Assembly: GCA_043799675.1 (NCBI GenBank)
Contig: JAZDNN010000005.1
Location: 1 to 19,479, forward strand
Length of the DNA stretch: 19,479 bases
Direction of reading: 5' to 3'
From: Candidatus Aenigmatarchaeota archaeon
GTDB lineage: Archaea; Aenigmatarchaeota; Aenigmatarchaeia; Aenigmatarchaeales; JACQIB01
Shown: piece after piece, positions 7,066 to 17,053 of the stretch
Layout: every line of letters starts with the position of its first letter
How positions within the stretch are numbered: the first letter of the stretch is position 1
Translations under genes and position numbers: made by a program
The notes under the pieces: model-generated
Told to the model about the DNA's origin: nothing
The model's database searches: none
What the model saw: the letters and a program-made list of their open reading frames with translations, nothing else

Positions 7066-8268
7066 GTGCCAAAACCCCTGATTGTCGGCTTCGACCCCGG
7101 ACTGACCGGCGCGATAGCCATGCTGGATTTGGAAGGTAACCTTGCGGCGGTCAGCAGCAGGAAGAACTGGCCGCTGGCGGAGATAATCGGGGAAATCGGG
7201 AAAACGGGCAGGCCGCTGCTGATTTCGACCGACAAGGCAAACACGCCCGTTACCGTGAAAAAGCTGGCCTCGGCATTTTCCGCGAAGCTCTGGGCACCGG
7301 ACCACGACCTGGGAATAGAAGAGAAAAAGGAACTGGTCGACGGGACGGAAGGCAGGGAAAGATGCAGCCAGCACGAGCGGGACGCCATGGCGGCCGCGCT
7401 GGCGGCATACAAGAGCATGGCCTCCGGCTTCTCCAAAGTCGAGGATACGCTGCGCCTGCTCGGACTGGAGGAAAAGGGAGAAGATATCAAGCAGCTCCTA
7501 CTAACAAAGAGAGCGAAGAACCTGACGGAAGCGGTCGATATGATATCTGAAAAAAAGCCCGAGGAACCGGAAAGGGTGGAAATCAGGACGACGCCGTCGG
7601 GGCAGCTGCGCACCGACGACCTCATCAGGAAAATCAGGAGCCTGCAGAACACCGTCGAGGTGCAGAAGGCCTACATCGACAGGCTCGAGCAGAAATTCAA
7701 GGAGCTGGAGAAGAGCAGGCAGCAGATGATTGACGAGCGGGTAAGGCAGACGACCGAGGCAAAGAAAGCGGCACTCAGGGACAAGGAACTCGGCCTTCGG
7801 GAACAGATGATTTCCGGACTGAGGCAGCAGCTGGCGGCCTCGGAAAGGGAAAAGGAAAGGGCGCAGCAGGCGATTGAACGGAAAGCGGAGCTCGAGCAGC
7901 TGATTGCGGAAGGAAGGGTCCCCATGGTCCCGGTGAAGGGATGGAGCAAGGAGGCCCTGGCCGAAGCCGACAGGTTCTACGGACTGAAGGACAGGCTCAT
8001 CTGGATATCGGACTTCAAGGAGAGCAATGCCGCCCCGAAATACTGCGTAGCGCTGGGAATCAAGGGGGTTATAGGGGAGCTGGATGAGAAAACGGCCGAA
8101 AGGCTGAGGCAGACGGGCATCCTGGCTGTCACCGGCCTGAAACCGGAAGGGGCCGAGTGGTGGGTCTGGGCGGAAAAGAAGGATTTTGAGGGTGCATTAC
8201 GCTCCACAGAGCGCAAAGGGTTCGTCAATTGGCTTTCAGGATATCGTCAGAGAGCGGAGTCGGAATGA
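7066..8268 (+). CDS. DUF460 domain-containing protein (RNase H-like N-terminus plus coiled coil)
   Basis: IVGFDPGLTGAIAMLDLEG, ISTDKxxxPxTVKKLAxxF and HERDAMAAA motifs, followed by a long coiled coil. Confidence 0.85.
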   Translation: MPKPLIVGFDPGLTGAIAMLDLEGNLAAVSSRKNWPLAEIIGEIGKTGRPLLISTDKANTPVTVKKLASAFSAKLWAPDHDLGIEEKKELVDGTEGRERCSQHERDAMAAALAAYKSMASGFSKVEDTLRLLGLEEKGEDIKQLLLTKRAKNLTEAVDMISEKKPEEPERVEIRTTPSGQLRTDDLIRKIRSLQNTVEVQKAYIDRLEQKFKELEKSRQQMIDERVRQTTEAKKAALRDKELGLREQMISGLRQQLAASEREKERAQQAIERKAELEQLIAEGRVPMVPVKGWSKEALAEADRFYGLKDRLIWISDFKESNAAPKYCVALGIKGVIGELDEKTAERLRQTGILAVTGLKPEGAEWWVWAEKKDFEGALRSTERKGFVNWLSGYRQRAESE

Positions 8269-11595: not shown

Positions 11596-12129
11596 TTGAA
11601 GGACATAAGGGTAACGCCGATAAGGAACGGAACGGTCATTGACCACCTGCCGGCCGGAAGCGCGCTGTACGTCCTACGAATTCTCGGATACTATAGAAAC
11701 GACAATCCGATGAGCAAGACAACGTCCGTCCTCATGCATGCACCGAGCAGGAAAACCGTCTGGAAGGACCTCGTAAAAGTGGAGGACCTCGAGCTGGTTG
11801 AAAAGGAACGCCAGAAGATAGCGCTCGTCGCGTGGACATACAGGCCAAGACAGATGCCGACGGTGAACATAATAAGGAACTACACGGTTGCCGAAAAGAC
11901 CATACTGGAAGTGGCGGAACGCTACGGGGGACTGGTCTGCTGCCAGAACGGGCTGGAAGAAGGGGGAAAAAGCGGCTGCATCAGCAACAACGAAAGATGG
12001 ATGGAGGGCACCAATCTGGAACTGCGCAACGACAGGTTCTTCTGCTACTACTGCGGCCGCGAACAGGAACCGGAAAGACTGCGTGAGAACCTGATTAGGA
12101 GCCCTGCCGCCGGCAGGAAGGTCTGTTAG
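11596..12129 (+). CDS. pyrI: Aspartate carbamoyltransferase regulatory chain
   Basis: VTPIRNGTVIDHLPAG, KDLVKVE and TVNIIRNYTVAEK motifs; zinc ligands C..N....CISN and CYYC. TTG start after GAGGG. Confidence 0.88.
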   Translation: MKDIRVTPIRNGTVIDHLPAGSALYVLRILGYYRNDNPMSKTTSVLMHAPSRKTVWKDLVKVEDLELVEKERQKIALVAWTYRPRQMPTVNIIRNYTVAEKTILEVAERYGGLVCCQNGLEEGGKSGCISNNERWMEGTNLELRNDRFFCYYCGREQEPERLRENLIRSPAAGRKVC

Positions 12130-12134
12130 AAACC

Positions 12135-12148
12135 TGGTGGGCTCGCTG
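12135..12148 (-). repeat. 14-bp direct repeat of the tRNA-Pro 3' end (CAGCGAGCCCACCA)
   Basis: TGGTGGGCTCGCTG at 12135-12148 is identical to 12260-12273. Confidence 0.9.
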
Positions 12149-12259
12149 CCCCTAGGGAACCTAGGTTCCAGGTGGACTACTGTCCACCGGACGGTGGAAG
12201 GTAAACTTCCACCTGTCCCTTAAGGGATTATTCCTCCTAAAATGGCTGCGGCTATTTCA
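12147..12259. repeat. Palindromic intergenic repeat, copy 1 (64-bp core plus 49-bp insertion)
   Basis: Aligns with 12694-12757 at 59/64 positions (manual count) once the insertion is removed. Confidence 0.85.
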
Positions 12260-12276
12260 TGGTGGGCTCGCTGTGA

Positions 12277-12330
12277 TACTCATAGCACCGCCGCGCTGGC
12301 GGCAAGAGCGCTTTTGGCACTCCGTGCTCA
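12277..12330 (-). other. 54-nt tRNA intron at position 59/60 (T loop)
   Basis: BHB motif: central helix TTCA/TGAG, bulges AA|T and TA|T, outer helix is the T stem. Confidence 0.85.
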
Positions 12331-12355
12331 TTTGAACACAGGCCTCAAGGTCCCG

Positions 12356-12389
12356 CTAAGGCACAGCCGACCACGGGTCGGCCAAGAGC
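12356..12389 (-). other. 34-nt tRNA intron at position 33/34 (anticodon loop)
   Basis: BHB motif: central helix GAGG/CCTT, bulges TT|G and AG|C, outer helix TCC/GGG. Internal hairpin GCCGACC-CGT-GGTCGGC. Confidence 0.8.
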
Positions 12390-12446
12390 AACCTCGGATC
12401 CTACCAAGCTAGACTACGAGCCCAAAATAGAACGTGTCCGACTTCT

Positions 12447-12466
12447 TAAATGGCTGCGCTATTTCA
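12447..12466. repeat. Partial third copy of the repeat (TAAATGGCTGCGCTATTTCA)
   Basis: Matches the right end of copies 1 and 2 with small indels. Overlaps the stop codon of the 67-aa ORF and a TTTAAG TATA-like box about 25 nt upstream of the tRNA. Confidence 0.7.
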
Positions 12467-12662
12467 CCCTGAACTTCGCATGCCAGAGTACGGTCACGCC
12501 AAGCACTATCACGATACCGACCATCAGGATGCTCGGACTTGCCGGCATCGCAACCGCAGCGGCGGTCGGACCGCCGGTCCCGATAGCAGACAAAAGATAT
12601 ACCGCGGCAAGCACCAGGGCCACCGCGACCAGGACGGATGCCGTTCCACTGACCGTTTCCAT
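12459..12662 (-). CDS. Small two-TM membrane protein (67 aa)
   Basis: Two hydrophobic helices and a basic C-terminus; TTTAAAAA about 23 nt upstream of the ATG. Confidence 0.65.
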   Translation of the reverse strand: METVSGTASVLVAVALVLAAVYLLSAIGTGGPTAAAVAMPASPSILMVGIVIVLGVTVLWHAKFRVK

Positions 12663-12693
12663 GAGAACAATACTACAGACAACTTTTTAAACT

Positions 12694-12757
12694 TGCCCCT
12701 AGGGAACCTAGGTTCCCTTCTGGGTTCATTCCTCCTAAATTGGCTGCGGCTATTTCA
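12694..12757. repeat. Palindromic intergenic repeat, copy 2 (64 bp)
   Basis: Contains the perfect 18-bp palindrome AGGGAACCTAGGTTCCCT (12701-12718) overlapping CCCTAGGG. Confidence 0.85.
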
Positions 12758-12764
12758 GAAACCG

Positions 12765-13562
12765 TTACACGCCGACCTCTATGACTGCGCCGATGGACAC
12801 GGCCGCGACGGCAATGGCCATCAAGAACAGGCTGTCCCTCAGAAGGAGATTCAGCTCGGGGGAGCCCCATTTCTCGCGGGCCATTCCGATGGACAGGATT
12901 CCGCCGGCTATCCCGGCCAAGAAGTAGGCGACCAGCTCCGCTATCGCATGGGGAAGTATTCCGCCGGTGGTGAGGAGCAACTGCTGGTACATGCCGGAGC
13001 GGGCGAAGTTGGCGAAATAAATCGCGAGTATGGACGCGTTCCAGCTCATGATGAACACGGCACCGGTCCCGAAGATGAACGACAGGAGGAAAGCGAAAGA
13101 CATCACCTTCACGTTGTTCATCAGGACGACCTCGAGCAGTCCCGGATGTACTGCCGAGCCGCTGGCGAGCGACTGCACCGCATTTATGTCCTCCATCTGG
13201 GGGGCAAACACCGCATCGACAAAGTTCGCCGGGGCAATGATTGCCACGAGGAAGATTGCCAGGAAGCTGCCGAGGAACAGGAGGCTGAAAAGAAGCAATG
13301 TTTCCCTGTGCCTGAGGAAGAACCCTGCGGTCATCTTCTTCTCGGCGCATTCGTCGACCTCCTCCTCGTCCACCTCGAATATCCTGTAAATCAGCGGGGC
13401 CATGCCGACGGCAACGAGCAAAGGTGTGATTATTCCCGCGTACTTCGGGAAGACGAAATAGGAAGTGAAGATCGCGGCGGCGGTGACTATCGCGCTGACC
13501 AGAAGCATCTCAAGCGGCCTGTTCTCTATGCTCTTCTCGGGAAACAGGGACTCAAGCACCAT
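12765..13562 (-). CDS. Stage II sporulation protein M / DUF95-family membrane protein
   Basis: Polytopic; NNVKV, WNASILA, GILPHAIAELVAYFLAG and terminal AVIEV motifs. Confidence 0.85.
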   Translation of the reverse strand: MVLESLFPEKSIENRPLEMLLVSAIVTAAAIFTSYFVFPKYAGIITPLLVAVGMAPLIYRIFEVDEEEVDECAEKKMTAGFFLRHRETLLLFSLLFLGSFLAIFLVAIIAPANFVDAVFAPQMEDINAVQSLASGSAVHPGLLEVVLMNNVKVMSFAFLLSFIFGTGAVFIMSWNASILAIYFANFARSGMYQQLLLTTGGILPHAIAELVAYFLAGIAGGILSIGMAREKWGSPELNLLLRDSLFLMAIAVAAVSIGAVIEVGV

Positions 13563-13570
13563 GACCCAAA

Positions 13571-16500
13571 TCAGCTTTCCGGGGATTTAAGCTTCTTCTT
13601 CGGAGGCATCGGTTTCGTGCCTGCAGCCGGTGAAACTTTCTTCGTTGGATTTGCTTTGATTGCCTTTTCAGCAACGGATTTTTTCGTTGTTGCCTTTGCG
13701 GGCATTTTGTTCACAACCCTCTTTGCAGGCTTCGGTACCGCCTTGGACACTGCAATCTTCTTCGGGGAAGGCGGAGGCAACACTTTCGCCTGAGGCACGG
13801 AGACCTTTGCCGCAGGCTTCGGGGTCTGGGTTTTTACCTTGGCCGCGCGCCTGAAAGAGCCGCGGCGCCACAGGAAGAACAGAACCACGGCTGCCACTAC
13901 TGCGACTGAAATGAACAGGACTATCTGGTCACCAGAAAGCTCGAACGGCGGTATGCAGTCCTCCTCGGCAATCTTCGGCACGCATACGTAATCCGTGCCC
14001 TGGTTGCATTCGTAGGAGGTGCGGATGTGCTTCGCATCCAGGCAGTCGGAAAACGCGTCCTGCTGGCAATCGCAGCACGGCCTCTCGACCGCCGACTGCA
14101 CGCAGGTGAAACCGTTGGACGGGCCGCACGTCCACAACGTCTCGTTGAGCATGCCTGCCACGCATGCCCCTTTTATTGAGGCGGGGCAGGAACACGCGGT
14201 CCCGCCGCCGATTACAAAGATTGAGAACCCGTTGAGTGCCGCCTCATGCAGGGTCTCGCCGCCGGTACTGTTCACGACCGTCACTGACAAGGATTCCCAC
14301 CTCTTGTCCCCGGAATTCCAGCGGTACAGGGAGGCCTTCGAAAGGTTCGCGCTGTCCAGCCAGGAATTCTTGACCGAGAACCGGAGAGTCGCATCGGCGA
14401 CGTCGGGGACGGTCGAGGTGATGTTGAGCCAGATGTACACGTTCTCGGACGGGTTGCCCAGTCCCATCAACGGAATCGTGCTGTTCCGTATGGTGACCTG
14501 CGTATATCCCTGCGTCTTCGAGCCGAAAATCAGGTCAAGCCGCCGCACCAGGCCGGAATCGGTGCAGGTCCTCGAACTGTTTGCCTCGGTGGCAGGCAGG
14601 CTGAATTCCACACCGCTGTTCAGAGGTATGGCGTTGCAACCGCTTACCGCGCCCCCGCCGCCCCCGCCTCCGCCGGTGATGGGGGTGACGCTCGTGCACG
14701 GGGTCGCCGTGAAACTGCTGTTCGAGCTTTCCATCAGGTCGCCCCAGCTGCTGTTCCAGTAGACCTTCCATCCTATCGCGCGGTTTATCATGGACGCGTT
14801 CCACCAGCTGAAATCGGTATAATCGGCGCCTTCAGTTATGGCCGCCGGGCTGCCATAGGTACCGTCAGTATAATTTCTCCATGCCCCGGTCTCGTTGGTG
14901 GACAAGAAGACCGTCGACTGGTTCATTGCGGTATCCTCCCAGGTCACCCTCAGCCTCAGCGTGCCGCAGACGCCGGATGCGACCGGGGTGGCGTTGGCAC
15001 ACGGAACCGCAGTAAAAGAAGCGACTTCCGTGCAGTTGACGTTACCCAGGCTCTCGTTGGCACACCCCTTCCAAAATACCTTGTGTCCCCTGACCGACTG
15101 GTTCCACCATGTGAAATCGGTATGGTCGGCGCCTTCAGTTATGGGCACCGGGCTGCCGTAGGTGCCATCAGTATAGTTCTTCCATGCACCCGTCTCGTTC
15201 GTGCCGAGCCAGGCATATGAAATGTTCACCACGGAACTGTTCCAGAAAATGGTCAGGGTCACGTTGCTGCACTTCCCGTATGACATGCCGCCCCCGAGCC
15301 CGGTGACAATGGATTCCGTGCAGGGAATGGCTTGGAACGTGGCGTTCGTGGTGGAAGTCCAGCGCCCTGCGGTATCGTTCGCCCACGCGAGCCAGTTTAT
15401 CCACTTGTTCTCCATGCTCGCGTTCCACCAGGTGAAATTGGACCACAGCTGGTTGCCTTCAATCGGCCATGGCGAATTGTAACTTCCGTCCGTGTAGTTC
15501 CTGTGGATATCGGTCTCATTGGTGGAAAGCACGACATGGGTGATATTGCAGGTTCCGTCCAGCCAGTGCACCGCAAGGTTGACGTTCGGGTCGCAACCCG
15601 GGCCGGAGCCGCCCCCTGTCTTATTATGAAAATAATCGGATTCGGGATCAATAATATCCCAGTTACCGTTAACACTGCCGCTGTTGGGTATAATGTCGGT
15701 GAGCGGCGGATCACATGTTATGTTATAGGTATGTGACCCGCGGTCCAGCAATGTTCCGTTAAAATACAAAGAAGTGTAATTGCTCATGCCGACTATGAGG
15801 TTGGAATCCTTATCGACGCCGTCAATGTATAGGGTGCAGTTCGTGAAACCTCCGTACGGAAGGTTCGAGCCACCTGGGATAGCTTCGGCCCACGGATTGC
15901 CGTCGACATAAAAACTCATTTCGTCGTTGTCGGTGCAACCACCCTTATAGGGGAGTGTTATTGTTGCGTTGACGCAGAACTGGTTGTTCGCAGGAGCATA
16001 AACAGCAAAGCCTGCCTCGTAGTAAAAAGGCACAGAAACGCCGTTCCATCCCTCCCAGTAAACTGAGCGGCTGTTGTAACACATTATGTTGTTCTGGACT
16101 TCCGCGAGTATGTTCGGCCCCGTAATAACGTTGGTGTAGACCGCATAACCCGAGTTGTTGGTGATGGTATTGAAAGTCATGTAGAACTCCCCGTACGGAT
16201 TGAGGTCCCTTATTCCGTCGTCCCGGTTCTTGTGAACGTAGTTGCCGGTAACGTTCCCGTCGGTCAGGTTGGAATCAACTATAATGATTCCATAATCGTT
16301 ATTGTAAACGTCGTTGTCCGAAATCGAGACGCCGTTTCCGGACTGCGGTGTCTTTAAAACTGCACCTGTTCCGTTAACAACTATTCCGTTCCCGTCGCTG
16401 TTCCACACGGAGTTGTTCCTTATCACCGTATTGGTCACGTTGCAGAGGTATATTCCGTCGCCCGAGCTGCCGTCCACATAACTGTCGACTATGTCGTTCC

Positions 16501-17053
16501 CTGAGGAAGAATTGATTATTATGCCGTCATATCCGTCGATTATCCGGCTGCTCCCGTTAACGGAGACGATGGCACCCTCCCCTATGTAAATGCCCGATTT
16601 ACCGTGACCACCGTCAAAGCCCGCACCGCTGACGGTCGCGCCGGTCATGGTCAGATTTGACACGGCAGAGCCGCCGGACGAGACGCCGCTGACATTGAAC
16701 GTGAACGCATTTTCACCTACCTTACTTATGCTGGAACCGGCACCCATTATCAGTTTCCCGCCGTTCCTGACAATCACCCCGCAGGAGCCGGATGGGACGC
16801 AGTTGAACGTCACGTCGCAGTTGCCTAAATCGAGCGTGGCATCGTCGATGATAATGTTGTCGCCGTTCATGTTAATCGGCATGTCATCGCTGCAGGTGCA
16901 TGTCCCTCCGGGTATCAAAGCGTCTATCACCCAGTCACCGCTTGTATGGTCGCATTCTGAAGGACTCATGAAATGACCGCTCGTTTGCGGCTGCATCACT
17001 GAGATGACAAGCATGACAGCGGCCACTGCAAGGGCCAGCAGGAGGTACTTCAT
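13571..17053 (-). CDS. Large surface glycoprotein: right-handed beta-helix (NosD-like) repeats, three Ig-like repeats, PGF-pre-PGF-like domain, Cys-rich modules, TM, Lys-rich tail
   Basis: Signal peptide; GIxI...NxVxxN beta-helix repeats; three TNETx...NYTDGxYxSP repeats; poly-Gly linker; ATLRFSVKNSWL...GFSIFVI motif; many NxS/T sequons. Confidence 0.85.
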   Translation of the reverse strand: MKYLLLALAVAAVMLVISVMQPQTSGHFMSPSECDHTSGDWVIDALIPGGTCTCSDDMPINMNGDNIIIDDATLDLGNCDVTFNCVPSGSCGVIVRNGGKLIMGAGSSISKVGENAFTFNVSGVSSGGSAVSNLTMTGATVSGAGFDGGHGKSGIYIGEGAIVSVNGSSRIIDGYDGIIINSSSGNDIVDSYVDGSSGDGIYLCNVTNTVIRNNSVWNSDGNGIVVNGTGAVLKTPQSGNGVSISDNDVYNNDYGIIIVDSNLTDGNVTGNYVHKNRDDGIRDLNPYGEFYMTFNTITNNSGYAVYTNVITGPNILAEVQNNIMCYNSRSVYWEGWNGVSVPFYYEAGFAVYAPANNQFCVNATITLPYKGGCTDNDEMSFYVDGNPWAEAIPGGSNLPYGGFTNCTLYIDGVDKDSNLIVGMSNYTSLYFNGTLLDRGSHTYNITCDPPLTDIIPNSGSVNGNWDIIDPESDYFHNKTGGGSGPGCDPNVNLAVHWLDGTCNITHVVLSTNETDIHRNYTDGSYNSPWPIEGNQLWSNFTWWNASMENKWINWLAWANDTAGRWTSTTNATFQAIPCTESIVTGLGGGMSYGKCSNVTLTIFWNSSVVNISYAWLGTNETGAWKNYTDGTYGSPVPITEGADHTDFTWWNQSVRGHKVFWKGCANESLGNVNCTEVASFTAVPCANATPVASGVCGTLRLRVTWEDTAMNQSTVFLSTNETGAWRNYTDGTYGSPAAITEGADYTDFSWWNASMINRAIGWKVYWNSSWGDLMESSNSSFTATPCTSVTPITGGGGGGGGAVSGCNAIPLNSGVEFSLPATEANSSRTCTDSGLVRRLDLIFGSKTQGYTQVTIRNSTIPLMGLGNPSENVYIWLNITSTVPDVADATLRFSVKNSWLDSANLSKASLYRWNSGDKRWESLSVTVVNSTGGETLHEAALNGFSIFVIGGGTACSCPASIKGACVAGMLNETLWTCGPSNGFTCVQSAVERPCCDCQQDAFSDCLDAKHIRTSYECNQGTDYVCVPKIAEEDCIPPFELSGDQIVLFISVAVVAAVVLFFLWRRGSFRRAAKVKTQTPKPAAKVSVPQAKVLPPPSPKKIAVSKAVPKPAKRVVNKMPAKATTKKSVAEKAIKANPTKKVSPAAGTKPMPPKKKLKSPES

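Follow-up and report, generated by a model that had tools for sequence, protein, structure and literature searches.

Genes and repeat copies at the locus

The window analysed here is a 19,479-nt stretch of a Candidatus Aenigmatarchaeota contig (JAZDNN010000005.1). On its minus strand a SpoIIM-family gene, a small ORF and a tRNA-Pro gene lie together with copies of a repeat that we call R. The features relevant to this study are listed in minus-strand order, followed by two on the plus strand.

12765..13562, minus strand: SpoIIM-family membrane protein gene (Pfam PF01944, E 2.7e-12)
12757-12694, minus strand: R_a, short copy of R, 64 nt (covariance-model match, E 1.3e-19)
12459..12662, minus strand: small hydrophobic ORF of 67 aa, no Pfam family
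12466-12441, minus strand: head-only copy of R, TGAAATAGC-GCAGCCATTTAAGAAGT, ~26 nt (repeat search)
12423-12260, minus strand: tRNA-Pro(CGG) with two introns (ARAGORN after in-silico intron removal, 76 nt)
12389-12356, minus strand: anticodon-loop intron of tRNA-Pro, 34 nt
12329-12276, minus strand: T-loop intron of tRNA-Pro, 54 nt
12273-12260, minus strand: direct repeat copy 1, CAGCGAGCCCACCA, the final 14 nt of tRNA-Pro
12259-12147, minus strand: R_b, long copy of R, 113 nt (covariance-model match, E 1.2e-10)
12215-12167, minus strand: nested insert within R_b, 49 nt, two hairpins
12148-12135, minus strand: direct repeat copy 2, CAGCGAGCCCACCA, directly after R_b
11596..12129, plus strand: convergent PyrI-like gene (PF01948, E 7.3e-21), stop 5 nt from direct repeat copy 2
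7540..7557, plus strand: empty site ATGATATCTGAAAAAAAG in ORF 7066-8268; locus L050 has an in-frame R at the matching place

Orthologues of SpoIIM are present in 10 of the 12 relatives searched. The initial annotation had proposed a check of the 67-aa gene in relatives, and homologues are indeed found: in G003 one follows spoIIM with no R between, and another is present at locus L042. Judged by sequence comparison, the 67-aa ORF is a conserved gene and not part of R.

ARAGORN and Rfam gave no tRNA on the unedited window, and Rfam returned 0 matches over the whole window on both strands at E up to 1. Intron-free homologues of the tRNA adjoin spoIIM in G010 and G002. The tRNA-Pro of L042 has no anticodon-loop intron, and its T-loop intron is unrelated to that in the window.

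R_a occupies the space between the SpoIIM stop, 7 nt away, and the 67-aa ORF's TATA box. Its sequence is as initially described. Its head consists of TGAAAT and a mini-hairpin (GC-CGCA-GC), followed by the linker AATTTAGGAGGAAT and the main hairpin CCC..AAGGGAAC-CTAG-GTTCCCT..GGGG. The first base of R_b directly follows the CCA of tRNA-Pro. R_b is a short form carrying a 49-nt nested insert in the 5' arm of its main hairpin, and once this insert is taken out the 59/64 identity reported for the two copies is right. The copy after the CCA is real, as the initial annotation had it, but the stretch written there as N14 is 63 nt, owing to the insert. A repeat search recovered the two copies as a 44-nt pair with 89% identity (12216-12259 / 12714-12757) and a 23-nt pair with 100% identity (12147-12169 / 12694-12716), along with a 17-nt family (D7) with three copies at 12234, 12442 and 12732.

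The nested insert forms the hairpins GGTGGAAG/CTTCCACC and GGTGGAC/GTCCACC. It is missing from the orthologue L042, where a short form occupies the place of R_b. C3, C4a and the metagenome locus L040 carry the same insert at the same position, with compensatory changes. We considered the insert as a bulge-helix-bulge (BHB) intron of R and rejected this, having found no fitting helix by eye. The head-only copy on the stop codon of the 67-aa gene is also real; its extent is ~26 nt (12466-12441) and not the ~20 bp (12447-12466) first given. It contributes the TAG stop of the ORF and a TATA-like box ~27 nt before tRNA-Pro. The 44 nt upstream of tRNA-Pro differ at one position from L042, where the adjoining ORF is only ~75% identical.

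From sequence, the 14-nt repeat after R_b reads as a putative target-site duplication of the tRNA-Pro 3' end. L042 has an identical copy 2 followed by unrelated sequence; the tRNA-Pro 3' end shows the same 14-nt duplication in two diverged strains, with different R subfamilies. Splicing of R_b together with one 14-nt repeat was rejected: the repeat has no 4-nt self-complementary stretch and symmetric BHB cuts are therefore impossible. The sequence GGTTTCT, found before R_a and after the second 14-nt repeat, is missing in L042 and was treated as coincidence.

Conserved structure of R

Across the family, R opens with a 5' junction motif of the TGAWAT type. A mini-hairpin whose loop is GAA, AAA or CGCA comes next, then a conserved, purine-rich linker and a main hairpin of 9-12 bp, giving a short form of ~60 nt and a long form of ~110 nt. 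The element ends with TGAWAT... and ...GGGC, and it has no terminal inverted repeats beyond TGA...TCA. TGAWAT is present in 10 of 26 copies, compared with 0.7% of random 16-mers.

The main hairpin covaries over the 26 sequences. Both sides change in 6 of its 12 pairs (19 cells), 0 of 500 shuffles reached the observed value, and slid controls were lower. Copies in G002 and G006 keep the hairpin with a different stem sequence. We consider it unlikely that the host selects for R as a structural module, of RNA or DNA, at the 3' ends of genes, with a putative RNA role and with spread or persistence through its usefulness; candidate roles would be a two-way hairpin that stops or stabilises convergent transcripts, or a site for an RNA-binding protein. 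The covariation favours such a module, as do the compensatory changes by which the orthologous copies C3 and L043 differ and the conservation of the purine-rich linker across genera. Speaking against it, the short copy folds with z = -0.78, no better than shuffles. The strand test shows no visible strand preference (G.U pairs against A.C mismatches, 11 to 7). For R_b taken together with the repeat downstream of it, the folding score is z = -5.96. As RNA, the mini-hairpin folds weakly (MFE 0 to -8.1 kcal/mol, 19 of the 26 copies folded).

R is dispersed through the genome and in relatives

With a covariance model (R1), 12 copies were recovered in full (E up to 3.3e-8) and 2 weakly, spread over 8 contigs of this genome (G000, a 0.75-Mb assembly, 83% complete), and BLAST added a degenerate long form at C4:19470. 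Eleven further copies were found in metagenome contigs. Unlinked copies can be nearly identical: 59/61 core positions agree between R_a and a copy on C14, and other pairs share 57/61, 56/61 and 55/61.

These copies bear on whether those in the window arose by simple local duplication or are a chance resemblance, a reading to which we give practically no credence. It is refuted by the dispersal over 8 contigs and 11 metagenome contigs and by shuffling: three matches to the head 17-mer with at most 2 mismatches occur in the window, while 0 of 200 shuffles gave any. The initial annotation had named a restriction to local copies as the outcome that would overturn its proposal; the copy number in the genome and its relatives contradicts that outcome and supports an undescribed, dispersed repeat at gene 3' ends.

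Within the order, R was found in 4 of 42 genomes, with 13 matches in G000 (one of them weak and truncated) and 1-3 in each of the other three. At the G000 sites matching the 11 metagenome copies, 5 are filled and 6 are without R. Among these six, one is a clean empty site between two convergent stops, and another corresponds to the in-frame copy inside a gene at L050. L050 and ORF 7066-8268 are 55% identical (tblastn), and the extra L050 segment reads through R without a stop.

Contigs from 4 sequencing runs carry R pieces in other sequence contexts, and a 318-nt contig among them has the same arrangement of tRNA and R_b head; none of these contigs joins across an empty site. The best-matching DNA sequencing run shared 0.12 of the words, and no RNA run appeared among the matches. 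Relatives occur in wetland and sediment habitats. Two pattern scans of public genome contigs, a collection that may omit near relatives, gave 0 matches, as did the head-and-linker pattern in viral contigs. Repeats on giant-virus-like contigs match only the hairpin part of the model (positions 42-64, ~25 bits) and were not counted as R. Full-text literature searches turned up no description of such elements in DPANN archaea.

Copies abut gene ends and some are flanked by duplications

At least 12 of the 15 copies abut a gene or tRNA end. The tail lies 0-1 nt from a convergent stop in five of the 15 (thermosome, aIF-1A, ArgRS, Alba and a 772-aa ORF), and in seven a co-directional gene or tRNA ends on the head or at most 8 nt away from it (SpoIIM, tRNA-Pro, Rpp30, an RNase III-like gene, a dCTP-deaminase-like gene and two unnamed ORFs). 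The Rpp30 reading frame runs 13 codons into an R copy.

The exact placement at 3' ends, where R often fills the entire spacer between convergent genes, again favours selection by the host, and so does the thermosome locus, at which the R body is identical between strains while the flanks are 76% identical. Archaeal intrinsic terminators use a T-run, and R has none of that kind. R also occurs in both orientations relative to the upstream gene, in frame within a coding region (L050) and in tRNA T-loops, where a 3'-end signal would be senseless. Its patchy occurrence, with 6 of the 11 metagenome loci lacking R in G000 and R-bearing genomes confined to 4 of the 42, likewise argues against a host-selected module.

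Exact direct repeats of at least 11 nt surround 5 of the 21 copies examined (14, 17, 29, 11 and 14 nt), and further flanking repeats are found at L042 (14 nt) and L045 (13-27 nt). Duplications of 13-14 nt are seen in 4 events. Around most young copies, R_a and C14a among them, there is no flanking duplication, so that one cut-and-fill mechanism does not account for every copy.

Taken with the near-identical unlinked copies and the filled and empty sites, we think it somewhat probable that R is a family of small non-autonomous mobile structured DNA elements. An activity of the host, or one acting in trans, would copy R to new sites, and R would persist where harm is small: just past stop codons, in a protein linker region or in a tRNA gene. 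Past stop codons, its own TGA or TAG and the tail-side TCA or CTA could replace a lost stop, and in tRNA genes the splicing endonuclease would remove it. In the window, R_a would have entered between the stop of spoIIM and the small ORF's promoter, and R_b at the tRNA-Pro 3' end with duplication of 14 nt, the 49-nt nested insert coming later; the solo head may now be part of the tRNA-Pro promoter region. Exchange among copies by gene conversion could look like recent transposition, and it could also explain the different R subfamilies at orthologous sites. L048 set against C32 shows a tract with recoded flanks, a pattern that by itself would favour conversion or replacement. The identical R body at the thermosome locus and the unchanged second 14-nt repeat of L042 could reflect selection for function and not selfish persistence.

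Mobile-element genes and comparison with known systems

The initial annotation had called for a check of linkage to a TnpA/RAYT, TnpB or recombinase gene, and none was found in the 83%-complete G000. There were 0 matches to Y1/RAYT (PF01797; the control responded in 6 of 14 control genomes), TnpB (PF07282; positive controls responded), Cas1 and tyrosine integrase/recombinase (PF00589), and DDE_Tnp_1 was also absent from this assembly. Reverse transcriptase (PF00078) was rejected as the mobiliser because its occurrence shows no association with R: it is present in 9 of the 42 genomes of the order and in 1 of the 4 that bear R (G000).

R resembles bacterial REP/BIME elements, which are likewise short extragenic palindromes repeated many times at the 3' ends of genes and in convergent spacers, in either orientation. 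It differs in being archaeal, in its conserved non-palindromic head and linker, in its presence in tRNA introns and in that no RAYT was found. We regard it as very unlikely that R is REP/BIME-like in origin or derived from IS200/IS605 and mobilised by an HUH (Y1/RAYT) enzyme, which the sub-terminal hairpin of an extragenic palindromic repeat at gene ends would suit. No TnpA or TnpB was found in G000, which argues against an IS200/IS605-derived miniature element. HUH single-strand transposition is not known to leave duplications of 13-29 nt at the flanks, and those around R are in this respect not HUH-like. The REP criterion in PMC3733652 is a GTAG or CGTC tetranucleotide at one palindrome end; in the alignment of R copies there is no such tag beside the palindrome, which is flanked by CCC...GGG. 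What remains of the REP/BIME or HUH proposal of the initial annotation is the REP/BIME-like behaviour at gene 3' ends.

It is also very unlikely that R is a site-specific recombination site bounding gene cassettes in the manner of integron attC. The order gene-repeat-gene-repeat-tRNA-repeat in the window suggested it, and in two places R in a relative stands where G000 carries a small ORF (86 aa in one case, 136 aa in the other). The copies are nevertheless single and scattered over 8 contigs, next to housekeeping genes. The search of G000 gave no tyrosine recombinase, and G003 conserves the small ORF downstream of spoIIM but has no repeat there. R does not bound the one gene indel examined next to a copy, C29b: the 516-aa gene absent in L046 was tried as an R-bounded cassette and rejected, as R does not flank it. 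The proposal of a cassette recombination site is accordingly unsupported. Integron attC sites have RYYYAAC and GTTRRRY core sites, and the 3' arm of R (GTTCCCT) misfits GTTRRRY; R copies are also single or paired, and there is no PF00589 match. The statement that R is not attC thus agrees with our data.

The same is true of two further exclusions made at the outset. R is like a MITE in being short, non-autonomous and multi-copy, with insertion polymorphism between strains; unlike a classical MITE it lacks terminal inverted repeats and a fixed short duplication (duplications are absent or 11-29 nt), and G000 has no parent insertion sequence. Unlike a CRISPR array, R is irregularly spaced (208-498 nt in the window) with genes between the copies, and no Cas1 was found.

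Rickettsia palindromic elements are small structured repeats tolerated in frame in protein genes and also found in RNA genes, with no known transposase. R is likewise a small structured repeat, with a tolerated in-frame copy and a presence in RNA genes. It is unlike them in that only one in-frame copy was seen (L050), most copies lie just past stop codons, and R is removed from tRNAs, presumably by splicing. Casposons have a Cas1-family integrase, terminal inverted repeats and a 14-15-bp target duplication, and reportedly integrate at the tRNA-Pro 3' end with a duplication of that size. R shares the 14-nt duplication at the tRNA-Pro 3' end (window and L042) and has two other duplications of 13-14 nt. 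Unlike casposons, R is ~60 nt and not kilobases long and has no terminal inverted repeats, no Cas1 gene was found in G000, and many copies have no duplication.

Relatives carry R as a tRNA intron

In G021 (locus L011), deletion of R yields tRNA-Ile(GAT), with R as a T-loop intron. In G002 (locus L019), a 72-nt R separates TTCAAA from the T-stem's 3' half, and its removal gives a sequence called as a tRNA whose isotype is unsettled. At its predicted cut this 72-nt T-loop intron starts with TGAAAT, as do free copies in G000. R_a and R_b, unlike the L011 and L019 copies, lie outside the mature tRNA.

A strict BHB motif occurs near R borders in 10 of 27 copies and at 124 of 400 random places, with no enrichment; the strict scan also missed the anticodon-loop intron of tRNA-Pro itself, relaxed motifs being beyond its reach. 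By eye, L019 can be arranged into a T-stem, a TTCA/TGAA helix and two 3-nt bulges, but it lacks the inner helix. The RNA processing signal suggested in the initial annotation is therefore upheld in part: homologous copies are T-loop introns in relatives, but as a signal of the three window genes it is unsupported, strict BHB motifs not being enriched at R borders.

Transposing families of BHB tRNA introns in Thermoproteales (Fujishima et al. 2010) are summarised in PMC4090602 and in bioRxiv 10.64898/2026.10.13.758758. As in those accounts, one R family is found in introns of different tRNAs at non-canonical positions (tRNA-Ile in G021, and G002), which implies DNA-level spread of intron sequences. 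In contrast to the Thermoproteales introns, most R copies are outside tRNA genes, a placement on which the summary passages are silent; some have 13-29-nt duplications, one is in frame in a gene, and strict BHB is not enriched. The review passages describe the transposition mechanism of archaeal tRNA introns as unknown (PMC4090602).

More tentatively, and with rather low probability, R may be an archaeal tRNA intron caught moving, a two-hairpin module that passes between T-loops, from which splicing removes it, and ordinary DNA at the ends of genes. It could travel via the excised, possibly circularised, intron RNA or its single-stranded copy. This fits the TGAAAT found at both the predicted cut of L019 and the starts of free G000 copies, the fact that the only many-copy genome (G000) also has a reverse transcriptase, and the hit on the tRNA-Pro 3' end in two diverged strains with the same 14-nt duplication. 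If true, it would provide a concrete, testable route to intron gain in Archaea.

R bears on how archaeal tRNA introns arrive and may show how such introns spread. R is seen in three states: free at gene ends with duplicated target sequence, in frame within a gene, and in the T-loop as a complete intron. These states, together with the filled and empty alleles in related strains, make the direction and mechanism of spread testable. R also matters for annotation, because it rewrites gene ends; ARAGORN, with introns allowed, calls only 10 tRNAs in G000.

Copies of the element in the window

Three minus-strand copies of one structured repeat lie on the window contig (C11 of genome G000; other contigs of this genome are likewise numbered C, and individual loci L).

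Copies of the element in the window
12757-12694, minus strand: short copy (C11a), 64 nt, beginning 7 nt past the stop of a SpoIIM-family gene (PF01944)
12466-12441, minus strand: head-only copy, recognized by sequence reading and as part of a 17-nt repeat family
12259-12147, minus strand: long copy (C11b), 113 nt, beginning immediately 3' of ...CCCACCA

The initial annotation had described two full copies and a head-only one, in agreement with a repeat search (pairs of 44 nt at 89% and of 23 nt at 100%, plus a 17-nt family, n = 3) and with the head 17-mer, which has three matches in the window at ≤2 mismatches as compared to none in 200 shuffles. The reported identity of 59/64 holds once a 49-nt insert in the long copy (12215-12167), which had passed unremarked, is set aside. 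The TAG stop of a 67-aa ORF comes from the head-only copy, and the protein ends in ...KFRVK in the window as compared to ...RKF in the homologue of relative G003, which is without the element.

Dispersal in the genome and the order

Local duplication alone, the outcome that would have undone the initial proposal, fails to explain these copies. In the G000 assembly (748,753 nt, 45 contigs, 83% complete), BLAST identified copies on C3, C4, C14, C16, C29, C32 and C35 besides C11. A covariance model built on 10 short copies gave 26 matches at E ≤1. Twelve of these, at E up to 3.3e-8, are full-length and on the strand of the element; the matches at C16:80556 and C4:38286 are weak or truncated, and the other 12 are on the reverse strand or comprise the hairpin alone. 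A further, degenerate long copy came from BLAST (C4:19470). Near-identical copies reside at unlinked loci (C11a/C14a 59/61, C29c/C4b 57/61, C29a/C29b 56/61, C14b/C16a 55/61). A second model, built on 26 sequences and searched in 42 genomes of the order, found the family in four of them, with 13 matches in G000 (one weak truncated copy included), three each in G002 and G006, and one in G021.

Structure of the element

The element consists, in order, of a junction motif TGAWAT, a mini-hairpin, a linker and a main hairpin. The TGAWAT junction is present in 10 of 26 aligned copies versus 0.7% of random 16-mers, and a stop triplet followed by WAT in 15 of 26 versus 1.3%. The mini-hairpin, NNGC-(GAA/AAA/CGCA)-GCNN, shows compensatory stem variants by eye (GC/GC, GT/AC, GGT/ACC, GCC/GGC versus GGC/GCC, up to GCTGC/GCAGC) and contributes little energy in RNA folding; GCGAAGC is a hyper-stable DNA mini-hairpin. 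The conserved linker is AATTTAGGAGGAAT, and the main hairpin is CCC-NNN-AAGGGAAC-CTAG-GTTCCCTT-N-GGG. Six of its 12 pairs vary on both sides (19 cells, 26 sequences), a count that no shuffle out of 500 reached and that is lower in slid registers. G002 and G006 have AGGGC/GCCCT as the stem in place of GGAAC/GTTCC, with the flanks retained.

Long forms (C11b, C3 and C4a in G000, and metagenome locus L040) carry a nested two-hairpin insert 3' of AAGGGA, and in G006 the matching relative position holds a 55-nt insert that differs from it. At the orthologous tRNA-Pro (L042) and Alba (L043) loci, the relative has the short form and G000 the long form.

Giant-virus-like contigs in a viral collection (L076-L098), which carry TFIIB-like, DnaJ-like and PCNA-like ORFs, contain GGAGGGATTATAAGGGAAC-loop-GTTCCCTTA as a recurring intergenic motif. 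Its 9-bp stem is identical to that of the main hairpin, the model match covers the hairpin part only (~25 bits), and the likeness could reflect either relatedness or convergence.

Position relative to genes

The genes beside element copies are ordinary housekeeping genes. In five of 15 copies the tail comes within 0-1 nt of a reverse-complement stop belonging to a convergent gene (thermosome, aIF-1A, ArgRS, Alba and a 772-aa ORF), and in seven of 15 the head falls on, or ≤8 nt from, a co-directional gene or tRNA end (SpoIIM, tRNA-Pro, Rpp30, RNase III-like, dCTP-deaminase-like and two unnamed ORFs). With C4a and C4c included, whose tails are 6-7 nt away from the end of a tRNA or ORF, 12/15 copies abut the end of a gene or tRNA on one or both sides. 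The RNase P Rpp30 frame (C32:11754-12455; L005 2255-2956) enters its adjoining copy for 13 codons and ends at a TAA inside it, and the Pop5 gene starts 14 nt 3' of this copy.

Orientation of the element relative to the upstream gene varies. This mixed orientation, the copies within a gene and within tRNAs, and the patchy distribution among genomes argue against the main rival explanation, a hairpin module selected by the host at 3' ends, which strong conservation at some loci favors and which we consider unlikely.

Signs of mobility

The element is mobile, structured and selective in its sites, and the best-supported reading is that it is probably a non-autonomous mobile mini-element, which would persist where harm is small. 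Among the 21 copies examined, five have exact flanking direct repeats of at least 11 nt: C11b (14 nt), C29c (17 nt), C29a (29 nt), C4b (11 nt, offset 20 nt) and L017 of G002 (14 nt). L010 of G006 has a split repeat (8 + 7 nt), L042 a 14-nt repeat identical to that of the window, and L045 one of 13 nt, or 27 nt with the head counted. The remaining copies examined lack flanking repeats, the young copies C11a and C14a among them.

A metagenome scan yielded 12 loci, all family members except L044. The matching G000 site is filled for five of the 11 (L042, L043, L046, L047, L049) and without the element for six (L039, L040, L041, L045, L048, L050). Informative among the latter are L040, L048 and L050. 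The G000 site corresponding to the long-form copy of L040 is CTGAAAT/TCAG, between two convergent stops. L050 has an in-frame copy within a homologue of window ORF 7066-8268, where the window site is ATGATATCTGAAAAAAAG. L048 and C32 are 99% identical on both sides of the site, and in L048 the element stands where G000 (C32:1968-2269; L071 ~569-870) has ~300 nt that include, in the opposite strand, an 86-aa ORF. The upstream gene has its last five codons synonymously recoded, which points to replacement by recombination.

In L039, with flanks 73-82% identical, the element occupies the place where G000 (C35:36353-36776; L072) carries an ORF of 136 aa without an assigned family.

Mobilization by an HUH enzyme had been one of the initial suggestions. 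No gene for Y1/RAYT, TnpB, Cas1, a tyrosine integrase or DDE_Tnp_1 is present in the 83%-complete assembly. The assembly contains one reverse transcriptase; such a gene is present in 9 of the 42 genomes of the order, and only one of the four element-bearing genomes has one.

Link to tRNA introns

One copy in G021 interrupts a tRNA T-loop, and its deletion in silico yields tRNA-Ile(GAT). G002 has a tRNA with further interruptions in which a 72-nt element separates GGGGGTTCAAA from TCCCTCAGGGCTCACCA; ARAGORN called a tRNA after removal, with the isotype unsettled. There, by eye, pairing is possible between TTCA of the T-loop and a TGAA near the 3' border of the element, flanked by two 3-nt bulges, and the inner helix is missing. 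A related copy adjoins a tRNA 3' end in G052, and C4a and C4b lie on either side of a tRNA in G000. The element forms part of an intron when in a T-loop and is probably not a self-contained intron, because the strict bulge-helix-bulge splice motif is not enriched outside tRNAs (10/27 copies versus 124/400 random places). Full-text literature searches yielded no account of such elements for DPANN archaea; the nearest phenomenon described there is intron transposition in Thermoproteales.

The tRNA-Pro locus and its orthologue

ARAGORN and Rfam report no tRNA in the window, although one is genuinely present there. Removing a 34-nt anticodon-loop intron and a 54-nt T-loop intron yields tRNA-Pro(CGG), and intron-free homologues adjoin spoIIM in G010 and G002. 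The 34-nt intron (12356-12389, minus) sits at a non-canonical position, after the second loop nucleotide and before the third (TT/.../CGGGA). With introns allowed, the ARAGORN count for the entire G000 genome is only 10 tRNAs.

Between the window and L042 the small ORF is ~75% identical; the 44 nt 5' of the tRNA, head-only copy included, contain one difference, which argues that this stretch is a constrained promoter or leader, probably including a recruited solo head. L042 is missing the anticodon-loop intron, its T-loop intron is unrelated in sequence, and its element 3' of the CCA is a short form of a different subfamily. The two loci have identical versions of both CAGCGAGCCCACCA copies, and the DNA past them is unrelated. 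Given the subfamily difference and the identical repeats, two insertions, each giving the same 14-nt duplication, may have occurred at one site; alternatively, constraint may act on the second of the repeats and the element may have been converted.

GGTTTCT occurs immediately 5' of the short copy (12758-12764, minus) and immediately 3' of the second 14-nt repeat (12129-12134, minus) and is missing from L042; we treat this as a coincidence, though an unexplained one. The T-loop intron of tRNA-Pro (12276-12329, minus) is itself a repeat, with BLAST matches (85-94%, 36-59 nt) at C16:19094-19148, C13:24598-24656, C12:2141-2176, C38 and C41. C31:16737-16813 matches exon parts of the tRNA-Pro, with 35 nt 100% identical to the first exon, and the absence of an intron-sized gap between the matches suggests a second tRNA gene of ~77 nt. 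Elsewhere in the window, direct repeats at 14789-15441 (period 303-321 nt, 76-86% identity; one 108-nt pair at 84%) fall within a 1160-aa ORF (13571-17053, minus), which suggests internal protein repeats.
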